DNA from: Abditibacteriaceae bacterium
GTDB taxonomy: Bacteria; Armatimonadota; Abditibacteriia; Abditibacteriales; Abditibacteriaceae
Assembly (NCBI GenBank): GCA_031372065.1
Contig: JANMKN010000332.1
Location: forward strand, 1-12,896
DNA: 12,896 nucleotides
Direction: 5' to 3'
How positions within the stretch are numbered: the stretch's first letter is position 1; each line of letters opens with the position of its first letter. Made by a program: the position numbers and the translations under genes. Shown in pieces: positions 108 to 12,864 of this stretch. Under the pieces are notes generated by a model. It made no database searches. It saw only the letters and a list, made by a program, of their open reading frames with translations, and was not told where the DNA came from.

Positions 108-1850
108 TTACTCTGTTTTGCTTCTCGTGGCAAAAACTAAAACTTGTTTGGGGGCTTCTTCTTTGGGTTTGGGCGAGGCTTTTTTCGGCACGACAGGGCG
201 GCCTACGTTGTAGGTTTCTTCGAGCCAAGCCACCACTTTTGTCAGTTGCGAGAGCGGCATTTGGCCGCGCGGTAGCGAAAATTGGCGCGTGATGGCTTTG
301 TTGGTTTCGCCCCACTTGCCGCCGAATTGATAGCGGTCTAAATCTTTGCAATAGTCGTCAATTTTGCGGCGCAGATTGGCTTCCATCTGGCTTGGCGTTT
401 GGTCGGGCAAATGTTGCGGCGCGACAGTCGGCAACGTTAATTGCGCCGACGCGGCAGGTTTGGCGTCTTCCATTGCCCATTCTTCACCGGCCCACGCGAA
501 CAAATTGCCGACTTGGCTCCAACGGCGCTGCTCGGCCTGACTGCCCACTGGCGTGATATTATTGCGCGGCGCCGCTTCGCCGACGGCTTGAATGCCCAAA
601 TCATCGCGCGCCGCGCCGCGCACGGCGGTGACTTGTTCGCTTTCCATCGCCTGAATAATCGTCACCATATTGCGATCATCCGGCACATAAACGAAGGCCA
701 TCTGGTTTTCCCACGGCCCCGACGCGGCGTCGTAACGCGTGGCGCGAGCGAGCATTTGTTCAATCCACGGGCGTGAGCGAATGTGCGTTAAACACGCGAT
801 GTGCGTAATCGGCGGCACGTCCAAACCTTCGTAAGCCATCGCGACGGTCACAAGCGCATCCATCGCTTTGGCGGTGCCGCATTGCTTGTATTTTTCAATG
901 TTGGCAGCCGCTTTGGACGAATCGTCGCTGGTGGCAATGGCCGCCGAAATGCCTTGGCGCTGCAAGTGTTCAAGGTATTTGCGCGCTTCTTCGATATTGG
1001 CCGTCACGACCAGCAGTTTTGAGCGCGGATGCGTTTTTTTGTGGCCTGCCCAATGCGCTGCGCATTCGTCGAGAAGCTGTTCGGCAAACTGTGTTTTGAG
1101 CGCGGTATAAACGGCTTCGTTGGTGTTTTTGTAGGCTTCGGAGATGCGCAAATTATAAGTTTCGCCATCCAGCCCAATCCATTCCGAGGAGCCATCCATC
1201 AGTTCAAAATGAATCGGCAAAATGGCGCGCTCCATCAGCGCGTCGCGCCGCGAATAAGCGAGGCCCGCCGTGTCGCCGCCGCCATATAAATCCACCACTT
1301 CGCCGTCTTTGGTCGCCACATAAGGCAAAAACGCGATGTTTTTGCGATTGCCTCGCTCTAAGGTGCCTGACATGAAAATTGTCAGCGCGGCGCGTTTGAC
1401 GAGCGGCTCCAACGCCGCCGCCCATGTGCCGCCTTCTTCGACATGATGCGGCTCGTCCAGCACCAAAATGTAGCGATGCTGGCGGAACTCGTCCACCATA
1501 TGATTGTTGGCGAGGCCGATGGCCTGATAAGTGGTAACGAAACCGGAAAGCCCGCGCGCCGGGTCAAGTTCGTTGGCGCTGCGACGAATAACGTGGTTAT
1601 GACCGAGCAATTCGCGCCCGCGCGCGGCGACAAATTCTTGTTCGGCCTGCAATTGCAAAGCGCGGCGCGGCACCACCCAGCAAAGGCGATCCGCGATGGT
1701 GGGAATGAGTTCTGCGGCGGCGATCAGCGGCAAAAGACTTTTGCCACCGCCCGGCGTGGTCGCACACACGATGCGCTTGATGCCGGATAATTCACCGCCG
1801 CGAATCTGGCGGCAGACCTGAAAAAATTGCTCTTGATGCTTGCGAAACAT
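108..1850 (-). CDS. Superfamily 2 DEAD/DEAH-box (ResIII-like) helicase, 580 aa
   Basis: Q-motif-like FRKHQ, Walker A TPGGGKS, motif Ia VVPRRAL, TTYQ, Walker B LDEPHH, motif III SGT, motif V EGLDVP, motif VI QMLARATR. No upstream in-frame start before the TGA at 1887-1889. Confidence 0.9.
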   Translation of the reverse strand: MFRKHQEQFFQVCRQIRGGELSGIKRIVCATTPGGGKSLLPLIAAAELIPTIADRLCWVVPRRALQLQAEQEFVAARGRELLGHNHVIRRSANELDPARGLSGFVTTYQAIGLANNHMVDEFRQHRYILVLDEPHHVEEGGTWAAALEPLVKRAALTIFMSGTLERGNRKNIAFLPYVATKDGEVVDLYGGGDTAGLAYSRRDALMERAILPIHFELMDGSSEWIGLDGETYNLRISEAYKNTNEAVYTALKTQFAEQLLDECAAHWAGHKKTHPRSKLLVVTANIEEARKYLEHLQRQGISAAIATSDDSSKAAANIEKYKQCGTAKAMDALVTVAMAYEGLDVPPITHIACLTHIRSRPWIEQMLARATRYDAASGPWENQMAFVYVPDDRNMVTIIQAMESEQVTAVRGAARDDLGIQAVGEAAPRNNITPVGSQAEQRRWSQVGNLFAWAGEEWAMEDAKPAASAQLTLPTVAPQHLPDQTPSQMEANLRRKIDDYCKDLDRYQFGGKWGETNKAITRQFSLPRGQMPLSQLTKVVAWLEETYNVGRPVVPKKASPKPKEEAPKQVLVFATRSKTE

Positions 1851-3382: not shown

Positions 3383-4579
3383 TTAAGAAGTTTGGTGACG
3401 CGGCCAACGTGTGGAAAACGTGGTGCCGTTTTCGTCGGAGGTCAGCGAAATAGCGCCGCCGTGTGCCGACAAAATTTCGCGCGTTATATAAAGGCCCAAA
3501 CCCAAACCTTGCGAATTCATCGCTTCTTCGGAGGGCAAGGCGCCGCGCTTAAAAGGATCGAAAAGCGACTCGTGTTTTGCTGGGGGAATCGGCTCGCCCC
3601 CATTGTGAATTTCAATGAAAATATCGGATTCGTTGCTGTGCAAAGTCAGGCGCACCGGCTGATCGGGCGCGCCGTATTGCAGGGCATTGGAAAGCAAATT
3701 GGAAAGGGCCTGTGCCGCGCGACTTTCATCGAAATGGGCGTGTCCATCGCCGTGCGCTTCAAAAATAATTTCGCGCGCCGCATGGCTGACACGCAATTCG
3801 TTGATGACTTGCAAGCAGACTTCGCCTAAATTATTGTGCGAGGGCGACAAACGAATGCCGCCGCCAACTTGACTGCGTGTTAAATCGAGCGTGTTTTCGA
3901 TTAAATCCGACATCCGCCGCCCGCTATCGCGAATAACGCGCGCCAACATGAGGTTTTCATCTGAAAGCGTTTCGTCGTCCCGCAAAACCGCCGCCGCCAC
4001 TGTAATGGCATTGAGCGGGCTACGCAGGTCGTGACCTAAAATGCCGATAAATTGGTCGCGGATTTTGGTCGTTTCCTGGGCGATTTCCAATGCTTTTTGC
4101 TGCTGCAAGCGGCGTTCTTCGGCTTCCATTTCAAAGGCAACCAAATTAGCTAACAACTGAAACGTTTGCAGATGATCTTCGGAAACAGGGGTTGATTGAG
4201 TGTCAAGCGCGCACAGAGTGCCAAAAAGACTTTTATCGCGGCGATAAAGCGGCACCGCAATGTAGCTTTCGACGCCAAAGACTGTGAAACCGGGATGATT
4301 TTGCCAGCGCGGATGAGTGCTGGCCTGAGAAATGACTATCGGCGCGACCGCACCGCGAACGGTATTTCAATAAGTGTTGGCAAGTTCGAGGTTTTGTCCG
4401 GCTGCAAGACCAAAACCGAGATTATCCAAGACGGCGCAGGCTGTCCACGTTTCGCTTGTGACGTGGGCTACCACAGCCAAGCGAAGACCTGTTGTTTTAC
4501 ACAACAAATCGAGAATGGTATGAACGTTTTCGAGGCGATCAAAAACAGCGAAGTCTTCAGGAATCACTAAAGGAACCAC
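3383..4579 (-). CDS. GAF-domain sensor histidine kinase with one in-frame TGA (codon 71), candidate selenoprotein, 398 aa
   Basis: Track ORFs 4367..4579 and 3383..4255 share a frame. The 111 nt between them translate without a stop as NTVRGAVAPIVISQASTHPRWQNHPGFTVFGVESYIA, completing a GAF domain (...SYIAVPL...FGTLCALD). It is followed by H-box LGHDLRSPL, N-box NLLSNALQYG, F-box LFDPFKRG and G2 GLGLGLYI. The GTG start at 4579 is uncertain (alternative GTG at 4567; no SD seen). Confidence 0.88.
4329..4369 (-). promoter_or_regulatory. Putative bacterial SECIS element directly 3' of the in-frame UGA
   Basis: mRNA: UGA-AAUACCGUUCG (11 nt)-CGGUGC-GGUC-GCGCCG-AUAGUCAUUUC. There is a 6-bp upper stem (4350-4355 / 4340-4345, one G-U pair) with a GGUC loop (4346-4349), and a lower stem GAAAU/AUUUC. 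The spacing and loop match the E. coli fdhF SECIS. Confidence 0.75.
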
Positions 4580-4618: not shown

Positions 4619-5989
4619 TTAGCAGGGCGGAGCAGCGCGACCTTCCAACGATGCCACAATATCGCTGAGAACTTTAACGACTTCGGTGTCGAAATGTGTG
4701 CCCGCGCCGCGATGCAGTTCGCCAAAGGCGTATTCAACAGACATGGCGTCGCGGTAAGGGCGCTTAGAAGTTAAGGCGTCATAGGCATCTACGGCGCCAA
4801 TAATGCGTGCTTGGAGGGAAATTTCGTCGCCCGCTTGCCCGGCAGGATAACCAGAGCCATCAATGCGCTCGTGATGGTGCAAAACAATCGGCGCGATATG
4901 TCGCAACGAGGGCACACGTTTGACTAAATCGCTGCCAATTTCGGAATGCTTTTGAATAATAGCGAACTCTTCGGGCAAAAGATGACCCGGCTTGAGCAAA
5001 ATGCCGTCGGGAATGCCGATTTTGCCGACATCGTGCAGCAAAGCGGCGTATTGCATTTCTTCAAGAGCCTTGCCTTGCAATCCAAAGCGCTTTGAAACGG
5101 CAACGGCCAAGTTAGAAACGTTTTCGCAATGCCCGCGCGTATAAGGGTCTTTGGCTTCGATAGCATCGGCCAAAGCCGCGACAGTGGAGCGAAATGAATC
5201 GCCCAAAGCACAATGCAAACGCTGGTTTTCGATGGCTAATCCGCCATGTCGCCCGATAGAAAGTAAGAGTTCCATGTCGTCGTCCGTGTAGTTGCCTTCT
5301 CGTTTGTTGGCAACTAATAAGATTCCTGTTAAAGTGCCACGAACGACGACAGGGGCACAAGCGATGTTCACTAAAGCTGTGCCAGCAGGCAACGCATTGG
5401 CGTCATTTATTTCGATGGAGTCTTCTTCACGGGCGGCGCGGCGGGTGAATTCAAAAATGCCGTTTTGCACGACTTCGGGCAGGTCGTCCAAACCAATAGA
5501 AGCAATAATACCATCGCCGTCCGCTTGGGTGAACAGGCCGAATTCCGAAGCGGTGAGGTTCATGCCGATGCGCGTGATAAGCGTCGGCAAATCCTCGGCG
5601 CGCAGGTCGCTGTAAACCTCTAAAAGTTCATGGCGCAAATCATGGTTTTTCTTGTTTTGCTGGGAGAGTTGTTGCGTCAGAGCCGCAAGTGCATCTAAAT
5701 GGCGCCCGCATTCGTGCCGGAGTTTTTCGCTTTCGCGCAAGGCCGACTGGCATTGATTGTTGGCGGCATCGCGTTCGTTTTGCATGGCGTCACGCTCCAC
5801 TTGATAGCGCCCGCATTGAACGCGAGCCGAGGCTAAAGCGGCGCGACTTTGTTCCAGTTCGGCGTGCATTTTTTGCAGCGCTTCTTGCAATTGGCGCCCG
5901 TTGGTGGCCAGAGCGTGCAAGGTTTGATTGGCTTCTTGAAAACTGGCGTCGGGATTTTCGCTGGCATCCGTTGAAGAATGAAGTTCCAT
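4619..5989 (-). CDS. Coiled-coil + GAF + HD-GYP domain protein (probable cyclic-di-nucleotide phosphodiesterase), 456 aa
   Basis: N-terminal heptad-rich coiled coil; GAF-like NIACAPVVVRGTLTGILLVANK...YTDDDMELL; HD-GYP motifs AKDPYTRGH, LLHDVGKIGIPD, HHERIDGSGYP, DAYDALTSKRPYR. Confidence 0.92.
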   Translation of the reverse strand: MELHSSTDASENPDASFQEANQTLHALATNGRQLQEALQKMHAELEQSRAALASARVQCGRYQVERDAMQNERDAANNQCQSALRESEKLRHECGRHLDALAALTQQLSQQNKKNHDLRHELLEVYSDLRAEDLPTLITRIGMNLTASEFGLFTQADGDGIIASIGLDDLPEVVQNGIFEFTRRAAREEDSIEINDANALPAGTALVNIACAPVVVRGTLTGILLVANKREGNYTDDDMELLLSIGRHGGLAIENQRLHCALGDSFRSTVAALADAIEAKDPYTRGHCENVSNLAVAVSKRFGLQGKALEEMQYAALLHDVGKIGIPDGILLKPGHLLPEEFAIIQKHSEIGSDLVKRVPSLRHIAPIVLHHHERIDGSGYPAGQAGDEISLQARIIGAVDAYDALTSKRPYRDAMSVEYAFGELHRGAGTHFDTEVVKVLSDIVASLEGRAAPPC

Positions 5990-6808: not shown

Positions 6809-7159
6809 TTAACGGGCTTGCCGTTCCATTGCTTCGACGGCGTCTTTGGCTTCTTTGAGGCCGCAGTTGGTGCGTTCGCGGTAGATTTTGATGGCTTCGA
6901 TTTTCTGACCGCGCCGCAGGGCATCTAAAACGTCGTCGTCGCCGGTGGCGCTGCCGCTGCTGGAACTAAACGGCGAATCAGTCGGGTTATTGAATGTGTT
7001 GGGCGTGTTTGTGCTTCCGCCGCTTTGATTGCGCTTGGTTATCACGAAGAACACCACGCCAAACATTACAATCGTGTCCACTACGAAAAACGCGATGATG
7101 AACGGCAGCCAATTGATGCCAGAGCCAGTAGTTGTAACCGTGTTTGAAATTTCCAACAC
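6809..7159 (-). CDS. Membrane-anchored protein with ribosomal L7/L12 C-terminal-like domain, 116 aa
   Basis: SD AAAAAGGAG before GTG; transmembrane segment WLPFIIAFFVVDTIVMFGVVFFVI; Ser/Thr/Asn linker; GQKIEAIKIYRERTNCGLKEAKDAVE matches the L7/L12 CTD signature. Not the canonical rplL. Confidence 0.82.
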   Translation of the reverse strand: MLEISNTVTTTGSGINWLPFIIAFFVVDTIVMFGVVFFVITKRNQSGGSTNTPNTFNNPTDSPFSSSSGSATGDDDVLDALRRGQKIEAIKIYRERTNCGLKEAKDAVEAMERQAR

Positions 7160-9484: not shown

Positions 9485-12400
9485 ATGATGAAAATGCAAG
9501 TGATGAAGTCGTTCGGCGTCTTGTTAATGAATGTCTTGATGTTTGTGGCGCTTGGCCTGAGTCGCCCGGTCAGGGCCGATGTGTTCTCCAACGTGCCCGA
9601 AGCCAGCAGCTATACGCTGGTTTACACGCTACCCATTCCCACAGGCGCCGACTTAAATAAGAACGCCATTCCTTACAGCGTGGATAACTCGGCGGGCACT
9701 CCGGCGACTTTTGACCGCGTGGCCTATTATCTGGAATTGCAATCTGGCGCGGGTGCGCTGCAATACGTCTTTGTTTCTTTTGACAAGCTCGCCGGTATGA
9801 CCGCCTCCAACCAGATTGGCGTGCCTAATGTGGCGTCGGGCGAGTTTTATCAAGCGCTTTTGGCCAACATGAACGTTGCATCGAACGTGGCGGGCCTCAC
9901 TACCGGCACGGGCATCGCCACCGGTAACATCGAGTTCTGGCCTTCCAATTACTCCACCCCCAACGACAACAGCGTGCCAAATGCCGATGGCAGCACCTAC
10001 GATTTCGGCGATGGCGGTGCGGACACTTCTGCTGGCTACGGCTCGATGCAACTTCACAACTATGATGTGGATGGCGCCGGTGCGGGCACTGTCGGGCAAA
10101 CGCTGCTCGCTTACAACCAATGGGGCAGTGGCGGTGGCGAACTGGGTATTGATAACCAGAGTAGCGGCAACCCCGACTGGACTTTCGCCGGCAACGTCGC
10201 CTCCTACACTGTGCGCAACCTGCAAATCTTAGTGCGCCTGCCGGACACCGCGCAGACCACGCCGAACTTTGTGGTCAATAACACCGCCGATTACGACGAC
10301 GGCACCTGCGGTGTTGCCCACTGCACTTTGCGCGAAGCGATTAACGCGGCCAACAGCAACACTGATGCGAGCCTTATCACCTTTTCGAGCCTCTTTAATA
10401 GCGCGCAGACCGTTATGGTGGACAACGACTTGCCTGCGATAAGCGCGGAAACGACCCTGACCGGCCCCGGCGCCACTCTGCTGACAGTGCAAGAAAACGG
10501 CGCCGCGCAGTTGCTTGATATTTTCACCGTGAGCAATCGCGCCAGAGCGACTTTTAGCGCCTTGACCATCAGCGGCGGTTACGACGGCATCTTCAACAGA
10601 AATGGCACGCTGATGCTCGCCGACTGCACCTTCAGCGATAACCGAGCTGCCCTTGAAAGCAGAGGCACGGCGACAGCCACAGTCACCAACTGCCTCTTCA
10701 GCGACAACATTTACGGTGTTGCCAACATAGGCGGCACGGCGCTGACCACTGACTGCACTTTTAGCGACAACGACCTCGGCACTCTGGTCTACGGCGGCAC
10801 CTTGACTTCTACCAATTGCACCTTCCGTAGAAACTCTTATGGCATTGCCACCGACATCGGTGGTGATGCCACGGCCAACGGCTGCACGTTTAGGCCCAAT
10901 CTTTATGGCGTTTATAACGGGGACGGCACGGTGCAGGTGACGAACAGCATTTTCAGCGGCAACTTCGACGGCATTCACAACGAAGTTGGCACGGCAACGG
11001 TCACCAATAGCTCCTTCAGCGCCAACGATGTCGGCATTCATAACCTCGACGCGACGCCTGTCACCAATTGCACCTTCAATAACAACAGCTTTGGCATTTA
11101 CAACGAAGGCGGCGCGCTGACGACCACCAATTGCACCCTGAGCGGCAACAACGACAAGGGTATTTTTGTCTTTGGAGGCACCGTGAATGTGCAGAACTCC
11201 ATCGTTGCGGGCAACACCAACTTCGACATAGACGGCACTTTCACCAATGGCGGCAGCAATATCATCGGCGGCACGGCGCTGGCGGCGGGTCTTGAAACGG
11301 ATGGCACCGGCAAGCCTCTTCTCCGGCACAACGGTGGCCCGACCCCCAGCATTGCTATCGTGCCGGGTTCTCCGGCCCACGGCAATGCCAACCCTGCGAC
11401 TACTCCGGTCACTGACCAGCGCGGCTTTCTGCGTCCACTGCCCGGCGTTGGCAAGCCTGACATCGGCGCCGTTGAACTCGAAGTGCTGGTCACCAGCAAT
11501 CCCGTTGTCACCGAAACTCCGGGCGGCACCATCGCCAGTTTCATCGTAGATTTAGGTTCTCCAGCGCTGCGTGTCATCACCTTCGATGCCGTTACCAGTG
11601 ATTACAGCGCTCTGGCAGGCAGCGACTACATCGCCCGCGCTTTGAAAAGCTACTCCATTGGCATCGGCCAAAGCAACAAGGTCATCACCGTGCCGATCTT
11701 GGACGACAACGTGGACGAGATTCAGGAAACCTTTCTCCTGCTTTTGTCCAACAGCAATAAGGCCAGCATCCGCGCCAATGGTGGTATCTTGGGTGGACGC
11801 GCCACCATCATTGATGACGATGCCGTGCCCACGGTTTCCGTCGCCGATTTGCCCGGTGTGCGCGAAGGCAGCAGCGGCACGCAGAATCGCAGCTTCACCG
11901 TCAAACTCTCGGCTCCCGGCACCAAAACGGCTGTCGTTGACTACGCCTTCAACGGCACTGCGACCTACGGCACGGACTACAACGCCCCGGCGGGCAACAG
12001 CGCACCCTGACCTTTGCGCCCGGTGAAACCAGCAAGAGCGTTGCGGTGCAAATCTACGGCGACACGCAGCCCGAAGACGACGAAAGTATTCGCCTGCAAC
12101 TGACCAAGGTTAGCGGCGCGGTAGCCGGTCAAGTCATCGGCACGCTTCTCATTCTCAACGACGACACCATTGTTTCCGTCAACAATCTTCCACCCCTTCA
12201 AGAAAAGTCTGCGGGCAGCCAGAGCCGTCATTTTACCGTTAGTTTGGCCTTTGCCAGCAGTAATACGGTTTCTGTGGCCTATGGTTTTGCCACATCGAAC
12301 GCCGCGACTTATGGCGATGATTTCACCGCACCGGGCGGCAATGCTGCCACCCTAACTTTTGCGCCCGGAGAAACCAGCAAAAGTGTCTTTGTAGATGTTT

Positions 12401-12864
12401 TAGGCGACACCTTGCCCGAAAACGACGAGCCGATTAGTATTCAACTGCTTAATGTGGTCAATGGTGTCTTCGATGGCACTGCCCGCACCGGTCAATTGCT
12501 TATTGTGAACGATGACGCAGCGCCCAGCCTGTCGCTTAACGATGTAATTCAGGCCGAGGGCAGCGGCGGCATGACCAACTTCACTTTTACAGTGACTTTA
12601 TCGAAGGTCAGCGGCCAAGTGGTGACAGTTTCTTATCAAACGGCCAACGGTAGCGCGGTGAAACCGGGCGATTACATCGGTAAAGCCGGCACTCTAACCT
12701 TTGCGCCCGGTGAAACTACCAAAACCATCACCGTTACAGTGGCAGGCGACGCCGTGCATGAAAACGACGAAACCTTTACCGTGGATTTGAGCAATCCTGT
12801 GAACGCCACTCTCCTTGATGGTCAAGGCCAAGGCACCATTTTGGACGACGACGCTTCAATTTAA
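9485..12864 (+). CDS. Large secreted CSLREA / parallel beta-helix / choice-of-anchor-Q / 4x Calx-beta protein, interrupted by a 1-bp frameshift at ~12002 (about 1126 aa if restored)
   Basis: Signal peptide ending RPVRA|DVF; VVNNTAD...CGVAHCTLREAINAAN (CSLREA-type, Cys at 10322); about nine xTNCTFSxN beta-helix turns; NGGPTP...SPA...DQRG...DIGAVE; Calx-beta units (LTFAPGETSK, DDxVDExxETF, TILDDD). Track ORFs 9485..12010 and 12046..12864 join in the middle of a Calx-beta unit. Confidence 0.85.
10610..11215 (+). repeat. Coding repeats of ~21-23 aa (parallel beta-helix turns)
   Basis: Recurring LADCTFSDN, VTNCLFSDN, TTDCTFSDN, STNCTFRRN, ANGCTFRPN, VTNSIFSGN, VTNSSFSAN, VTNCTFNNN, TTNCTLSGN. Confidence 0.8.

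Follow-up and report, generated by a model that had tools for sequence, protein, structure and literature searches.

We describe here a cytoplasmic two-component sensor kinase that very probably carries selenocysteine (Sec) in its GAF domain, which is the best overall explanation we have for a kinase gene that appears split by an in-frame TGA codon in a bacterium of the Abditibacteriaceae (phylum Armatimonadota). The UGA at 4367-4369 is almost certainly recoded as Sec, and comparison with related loci points to a real, apparently uncatalogued selenoprotein family of Sec-GAF kinases. The gene is located in a stretch of 12,896 nucleotides (contig JANMKN010000332.1 of assembly GCA_031372065.1), called the window in the following. 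The features that matter for the argument are:

3383..4579, minus strand: gene for a GAF-HisKA-HATPase sensor histidine kinase with a predicted in-frame Sec codon, stop codon TAA
4367..4369, minus strand: TGA predicted to encode Sec (U71), at the invariant Cys column of the GAF domain
4130..4537, minus strand: GAF sensor domain, residues 15-150, with conserved W45, C48, T69, U71, H95, S105, Y106, C123 and D126
3869..4060, minus strand: HisKA domain (Pfam), residues 174-237, with H-box His183
3398..3730, minus strand: HATPase_c domain (Pfam), residues 284-394, with conserved N298, G328, F340, G360 and G362
4340..4355, minus strand: putative bacterial SECIS upper stem-loop with a 6-bp stem and a GGUC loop (4349-4346), 17 nt after the UGA
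4619..5989, minus strand: GAF/HD-domain (HD-GYP-type) gene with a coiled-coil, 40 nt upstream of the kinase

An in-frame TGA codon in a sensor kinase gene

With TGA read as Sec, positions 3383-4579 of the minus strand form a single open frame of 398 residues in which U71 is the sole recoded codon; translation with table 11 breaks the kinase frame into ORFs of 70 and 290 aa. It had been claimed that these two ORFs are one frame and that the TGA is its only interruption, and the translation with U agrees with this claim. The GAF, HisKA and HATPase_c domains each score above their Pfam cut-offs, and H183 together with the conserved residues N298, F340, G360 and G362 identifies the protein as a HisKA-type kinase; the GAF domain and the kinase boxes are intact, as was also predicted. 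Translation probably begins at a GTG. The one at 4579 would give 398 aa; the one at 4567, which would give 394 aa with Sec67, is the likelier start, since it agrees with the closest Cys homologues (P0002-P0004) in N-terminus and in length (394 aa). Thus, of the proposed 398-aa kinase with Sec71 the Sec reading stands, while the length should probably be corrected to 394 aa. Residue numbers nevertheless follow the 398-aa version (U71) throughout. Assembled contigs of runs X1, which may be the source, and X3 span the codon and show no letter other than TGA, these being contigs of one study and not independent reads.

The original prediction had placed the TGA at a conserved Cys position, and the homologues bear this out. 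All 118 homologues that reach the U71 column have Cys there, as do 149 of the 150 best 50%-cluster representatives; the remaining two of the 120 homologues listed, P0043 and P0063, are gene calls that start just after the column and lack it. W45, C48, T69, H95, S105, Y106, C123 and D126 are also near-invariant across the homologues. The codon at this column was read in 88 loci, of which 8 come from genomes of the host phylum and 80 are the best of 142 metagenome matches, leaving aside L023, whose contig begins past the codon, and L029, a duplicate of L022. It is TGA in 31 loci, TGC in 50 and TGT in 7, and never TAA or TAG. The codon counts for genomes are confined to the host phylum; a contig search with the single protein matched G002 only. 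The TGA shared by relatives, for which a search had been proposed, is found in four genomes and 27 metagenome loci.

The 31 TGA loci have GAF identities to the window protein down to 47% and a locus GC of 0.45-0.71, and in none of them does the aligned GAF domain contain a stop other than the TGA at the column. The kinase is complete in 20, runs off the contig end in six and is broken in the kinase part in five (L022, L042, L057, and L035 and L037, which are near-identical in sequence). L022 belongs to G002, where frameshifts affect the kinase (L022/L029), the HD-GYP gene and selA (C8:669353-670369) and the selB match is short. That the same assembly fragments selA and the HD-GYP gene suggests that the break in L022, and the frameshifts of G002 altogether, are indel errors of the assembly. 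For the comparison of the window with G002, dN/dS is 0.195/2.70 upstream of the TGA and 0.142/1.93 and 0.215/1.45 downstream of it. dN lies far below dS on both sides in five of six pairs in an ungapped comparison; the exception is the pair L039/L040, whose kinase stretch has dN higher than dS, the ungapped comparison having probably lost register there. These values indicate purifying selection on both sides of the TGA, and the relaxed selection of the downstream part that would speak for a recent nonsense mutation was not found.

That the TGA is a true stop, be it by nonsense mutation, by sequencing error or in a conserved arrangement where a 70-aa peptide is followed by a re-initiated kinase, is very improbable. 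Gene callers do predict the two pieces separately, as short fragments and as kinase fragments such as P0043 and P0063, and TGA is a normal stop in the host genome, where it terminates 777 of 2265 ORFs of at least 350 aa. However, a stop at this place would halve the GAF fold, and its recurrence in 31 loci, always at the Cys column and with no other stop codon, argues against it, as do the covarying SECIS downstream and the Sec machinery in all four TGA genomes that could be checked (see below). When protein databases were searched with the N-terminal piece, 649 short proteins matched. The 120 that were listed all have TY or TF as their last residues, immediately before the column, in a ranking biased by a query that itself ended there and with entries judged from protein ends and not from stop codons. 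Among the matches listed, labelled short proteins come from Pyrinomonadaceae (Acidobacteriota) and from Chloroflexia/Chloroflexota. The protein ends indicate that gene callers split members of the family in two, into a 'hypothetical protein' of about 70 aa and a truncated kinase.

A putative SECIS hairpin and the machinery for Sec decoding

The putative SECIS did not figure in the original prediction and is the strongest evidence for Sec recoding. The available part of PMC13188914 models the bacterial SECIS with a loop of 3-9 nt, a G within its two leading positions, a stem of 4-16 bp and a spacing of 16-37 nt. The hairpin in the window fits this model with a 4-nt GGUC loop, a 6-bp stem, a spacing of 17 nt and -11.8 kcal/mol. 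Its folding energy alone is not significant (z -1.32, 0.75 and -0.42), and a similar hairpin follows 165 of 7612 in-frame TGA sites of the host genome under our filter. The evidence for the SECIS is therefore comparative and does not come from the single sequence. In 28 distinct TGA rows 93.4% of the stem cells are paired. Stem covariation is 0.394 compared to 0.123 for shuffled rows (0 of 500 shuffles) and at most 0.099 for slid controls, where the shuffle control ignores relatedness and the hairpin structure was derived from the same TGA sequences. Both stem pairs that join third codon positions (wobble-wobble) show all four Watson-Crick types. The six inner pairs are complete in 22 of the 28 TGA rows versus none of 46 Cys rows. 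GGTC makes up the loop in 26 of 28 TGA rows; Ala is encoded by GCG in 26 of 26 cases (background 37%) and Val by GTC in 26 of 27 (background 35%). On these counts, synonymous choice is fixed where the predicted loop and stem require it, and protein constraint cannot explain the changes of the predicted stem at synonymous sites. In L043 and L046 a one-codon insertion between the UGA and the hairpin places the loop at 20 nt with the loop sequence retained.

The host genome (G000, 6.14 Mb, 93.9% complete) contains selA, selB, selC and selD, all four genes that the original prediction had suggested to look for and that a bacterial selenoprotein gene calls for. SelA, tRNA-Sec and a TGA-containing SelD are encoded together on contig C287, and SelB on C44. 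The tRNA-Sec is the only tRNA with a TCA anticodon among 56 ARAGORN calls. A genome-wide reassignment of UGA to Trp or Gly, or a suppressor tRNA, is refuted by this and by the many long host ORFs that end in TGA; moreover, the homologous residue is Cys and neither Trp nor Gly. We give this alternative a practically negligible probability, in agreement with the earlier argument against reassignment. Among the TGA-form genomes selB was found in G000, G002 and G003 and selA in G100, hence Sec machinery in four of four checked, while selB was not found in the Cys-form genomes G006, G018, G021 and G023 (87-92% complete), a co-occurrence that holds among kin and not among independent genomes. selB is also present in G001, although the partial protein of this genome groups at 90% with a Cys form. 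The sel genes, the Cys column and the shared TGA under selection are the three points at which the Sec reading could have failed directly, and it failed at none of them.

The host genome has more in-frame TGA codons with SECIS-like hairpins, at C129:12505(-), C351:59316(-), C65:5524(-) and C355:33290(+). Labelled by eye from their motifs, these genes look AhpD-like (CxxU) and peroxiredoxin-like (TxxU, UxxC, UxxT). Two further in-frame TGA codons, at C260:601(+) and C199:13674(+), are flanked on either side by sequence that looks coding and have a G-loop hairpin, while no selenoprotein motif was recognised in them; these are possibly further unusual selenoproteins, or chance. The host tRNA genes include arrays of 8 and 7 genes, at C272:5671-6560 and C197:3039-4293.

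Spread and novelty of the predicted Sec form

Sec-GAF kinases appear to span at least three phyla, namely Armatimonadota, Chloroflexota and Acidobacteriota, a spread that the original prediction had not noted. We have calculated a quick ML tree of 106 dereplicated GAF domains (from 206, near-duplicates dropped) over 144 columns with the Sec/Cys site masked. All 24 Sec rows fall inside one group of 44 rows (SH-aLRT 94), alongside 20 Cys rows that include Myxococcota, and the Sec/Cys label requires at least 5 changes on the tree versus 22 when shuffled. The simplest reading of this unrooted tree, in which many forks are unresolved, would be one gain of Sec followed by several reversions to Cys. 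The tree thereby suggests repeated Sec-to-Cys reversion, against the rarity in bacteria that is stated in the available part of a 2026 review (PMC13188914). Cys-coded proteins nested among the Sec forms are P0010, P0006-P0008 and P0002-P0004. The GAVAP peptide of P0010, which is encoded by the SECIS in Sec forms, is likely a relic of such a reversion. The near relatives P0002-P0004 (about 70-74% identity) use Cys, which argues that Sec is dispensable.

The original prediction knew of no characterised Sec-containing two-component sensor, and the inventories are in line with this. Table 1 of PMC13188914 (2026) lists 119 families, through which the families of Haft and Tolstoy 2025 were covered as well, and contains no GAF protein, histidine kinase or two-component sensor. 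Term searches gave no GAF selenoprotein or histidine kinase in the text of the same paper, in the text and the available part of the supplement of BSepDB (PMC13326102), or in the text and four supplements of deep-Sep (PMC12013277). No paper describing a Sec-GAF or a Sec-kinase turned up in a literature search over titles and the beginnings of abstracts, with subscription papers outside its scope, and the GAF region is not covered by any model of NCBIfam 20.0. The wider proposal is that of an uncatalogued class of signalling selenoproteins in at least three phyla, with a GAF-pocket selenol as direct sensing switch and a history of one Sec gain and several Cys reversions; we see it as evenly balanced between right and wrong.

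Most of the catalogued bacterial selenoproteins are redox enzymes, proteins that handle metals, or transporters, and a Sec sensor kinase would bring selenium into signal perception. The GAF subfamily has 2101 representatives at E <=1e-10. If the proposal is true, Sec marks a catalytic-type residue of a large and unstudied three-Cys GAF family. Sec usually replaces a reactive Cys, and therefore the codon points to a functional residue of a widespread GAF subfamily. With such a residue pinpointed in a subfamily that has no known ligand, the signal becomes directly testable.

The GAF sensor domain and its relation to known systems

An AlphaFold2 model with Cys in place of Sec has a GAF fold (pLDDT 87.5), in which C48 and C123 are positioned on strands and U71 in a short helical segment of lower confidence. 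The best structural match of the GAF domain is Dcsbis (4ZMU, Z 16.9, rmsd 2.7, 150 aligned), which is also the best profile match (E 5.5e-7), and the Dcsbis Cys aligns with U71. Taken together, the model and this match would place U71 where the helix that forms the roof of the GAF pocket begins. Dcsbis (PA2771) shares with the window protein the GAF fold and the Cys at the U71 position; it differs in its diguanylate cyclase output, and identity is 15-20%. According to the available text of PMC4937426, its GAF domain has a large pocket between the sheet and helices 3-4, without a known ligand, and binds neither cAMP nor cGMP.

U71 also aligns with Cys76 of E. coli MsrC in three of three MAFFT modes, 24 residues before the HIAC Cys; this mapping is that of MAFFT, the family profile against MsrC being not significant by hhalign or hmmsearch. 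When a GAF HMM was iterated, it shifted towards the C-terminal half and did not cover U71. The HIAC Cys is the nucleophile of fRMsr (bioRxiv 10.1101/2021.02.26.433065, available part), and the accessible portion of PMC6211008 describes a Cys 24 residues before the nucleophile as critical for activity of Thermoplasma fRMsr. From this spacing, U71 may be equivalent to the critical Thermoplasma Cys. The window protein has the GAF fold in common with fRMsr/MsrC (3MMH is a Foldseek match), as well as the position of Cys76, and it might share the thiol redox chemistry of these enzymes. However, it lacks the catalytic HIAC Cys, MsrC Asp123 aligns with its C123, and its GAF domain is fused to a kinase. 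We have rejected an identity as fRMsr because the HIAC nucleophile is not kept, the profile comparisons are not significant and the domain is part of a kinase.

Since U71 aligns with MsrC Cys76 and with the Dcsbis Cys, yet the protein is not an fRMsr, we propose redox or electrophile sensing with the selenolate as the reactive sensing atom, and we give this proposal about an even chance. SelB-tRNA(Sec) would bind the GGUC-loop hairpin 17 nt downstream, so that the UGA is decoded and Sec takes the place of the invariant Cys in the three-Cys GAF subfamily (C48, C/U71 and C123, plus H95). The selenolate would react reversibly with an oxidant or a small electrophile that enters the GAF pocket, and resolution would occur as a selenenylsulfide with C123 or C48. 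The C-terminal GAF helix, which runs into HisKA, would then move and switch the autophosphorylation of His183. As a by-product, full-length kinase would be made only when selenium is available.

The GAF/HD-GYP gene adjoins the kinase also in two other genus members with TGA, and this neighbour may link the sensor to c-di-GMP turnover. Upstream of the kinase there are mutL, two small genes, a molybdopterin-binding gene and the GAF/HD-GYP gene; G002 has this gene order as well, and G003 has part of it. A small membrane-anchored protein with a C-terminal ribosomal L7/L12 C-terminal-like domain is encoded at 6809-7159 (-), downstream of mutL, and is kept in G002. The window further contains a DEAD/ResIII-type helicase gene (108-1850, minus strand) and a gene for a large secreted Calx-beta protein (9485-12864, plus strand) that is apparently split between two frames near 12010-12046. 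There is no response regulator within the window; REC genes adjoin the kinase in L038, L047, L048, L055/L056 and L113. No conserved operon was found across the Sec-GAF kinase loci compared.

Sec might be real and still act as a ligand for a metal or an Fe-S cluster. In that case Zn, Cu, Fe or a small Fe-S cluster would be held by C48, U71, C123 and H95, and through this cofactor the kinase would sense a metal, O2 or NO, which we consider rather doubtful. AirS of S. aureus is a kinase with a GAF-bound Fe-S cluster, and three invariant Cys/Sec residues with one His could plausibly serve as ligands. Position 93 holds a fourth Cys in 57 of 150 representatives; it is Gln in the window protein and is not conserved. 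CxxC or CxxH spacing is absent, and none of the listed structural matches names a metal-bound or Fe-S GAF domain, while many are haem or bilin GAFs. More generally, metals or molecules derived from metals take part in about 70% of the ligand interactions predicted for selenoprotein families (PMC13188914, available part), which would favour a metal.

Alternatively, Sec might form an adduct, covalent or tight, with a specific organic ligand, or the system might be mainly a selenium-availability switch that works through the Sec-dependent full-length kinase. We judge this distinctly unlikely. There is precedent for an adduct, as cysteines bind bilins covalently and MsrC has a Cys in its substrate site. 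The alignment of U71 with this pocket Cys, the many bilin-binding GAFs among the top structural neighbours and the large pocket of Dcsbis would fit. However, the bilin-attachment Cys-His motif of phytochrome and cyanobacteriochrome GAF domains, which by a weak alignment to 2K2N we take to be at position 93, appears not to be conserved here. The genes next to the kinase differ from locus to locus and are neither selenium nor bilin genes, and a Cys version occurs in close kin that have selB (G001).

Sensing of redox signals or electrophiles through the selenolate, the reading that we prefer, finds a functional parallel in DosS and DosT, which are among the structural matches. As far as the available part of PMC8063818 goes, these are GAF-input histidine kinases that sense redox or gases. 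They sense via a His-bound haem, have tandem GAF domains and contain no Sec. The Cys-form three-Cys GAF kinases (RefSeq; Myxococcus, Corallococcus, Pseudomonas, Rhizobiales) belong to the same subfamily with the same architecture, have about 30-56% GAF identity and share the invariant C48/C71/C123/H95, but they use Cys codons and have no SECIS. The three-Cys GAF is also found on HWE and HisKA_3 kinases and on SpoIIE proteins, and our literature search found no functional study of the Cys-form kinases. With the SelB/SECIS-dependent selenoproteins (FdhA, SelD, Prx and AhpD-like proteins) the window protein shares the in-frame UGA, the Sec/Cys pair, a SECIS within the ORF and selABCD. The SECIS of the catalogued selenoproteins has a G-first loop 16-37 nt downstream in the part of PMC13188914 that was available, and the window has the same (17 nt), while its T-[YF]-U motif is unlike UxxC or CxxU.
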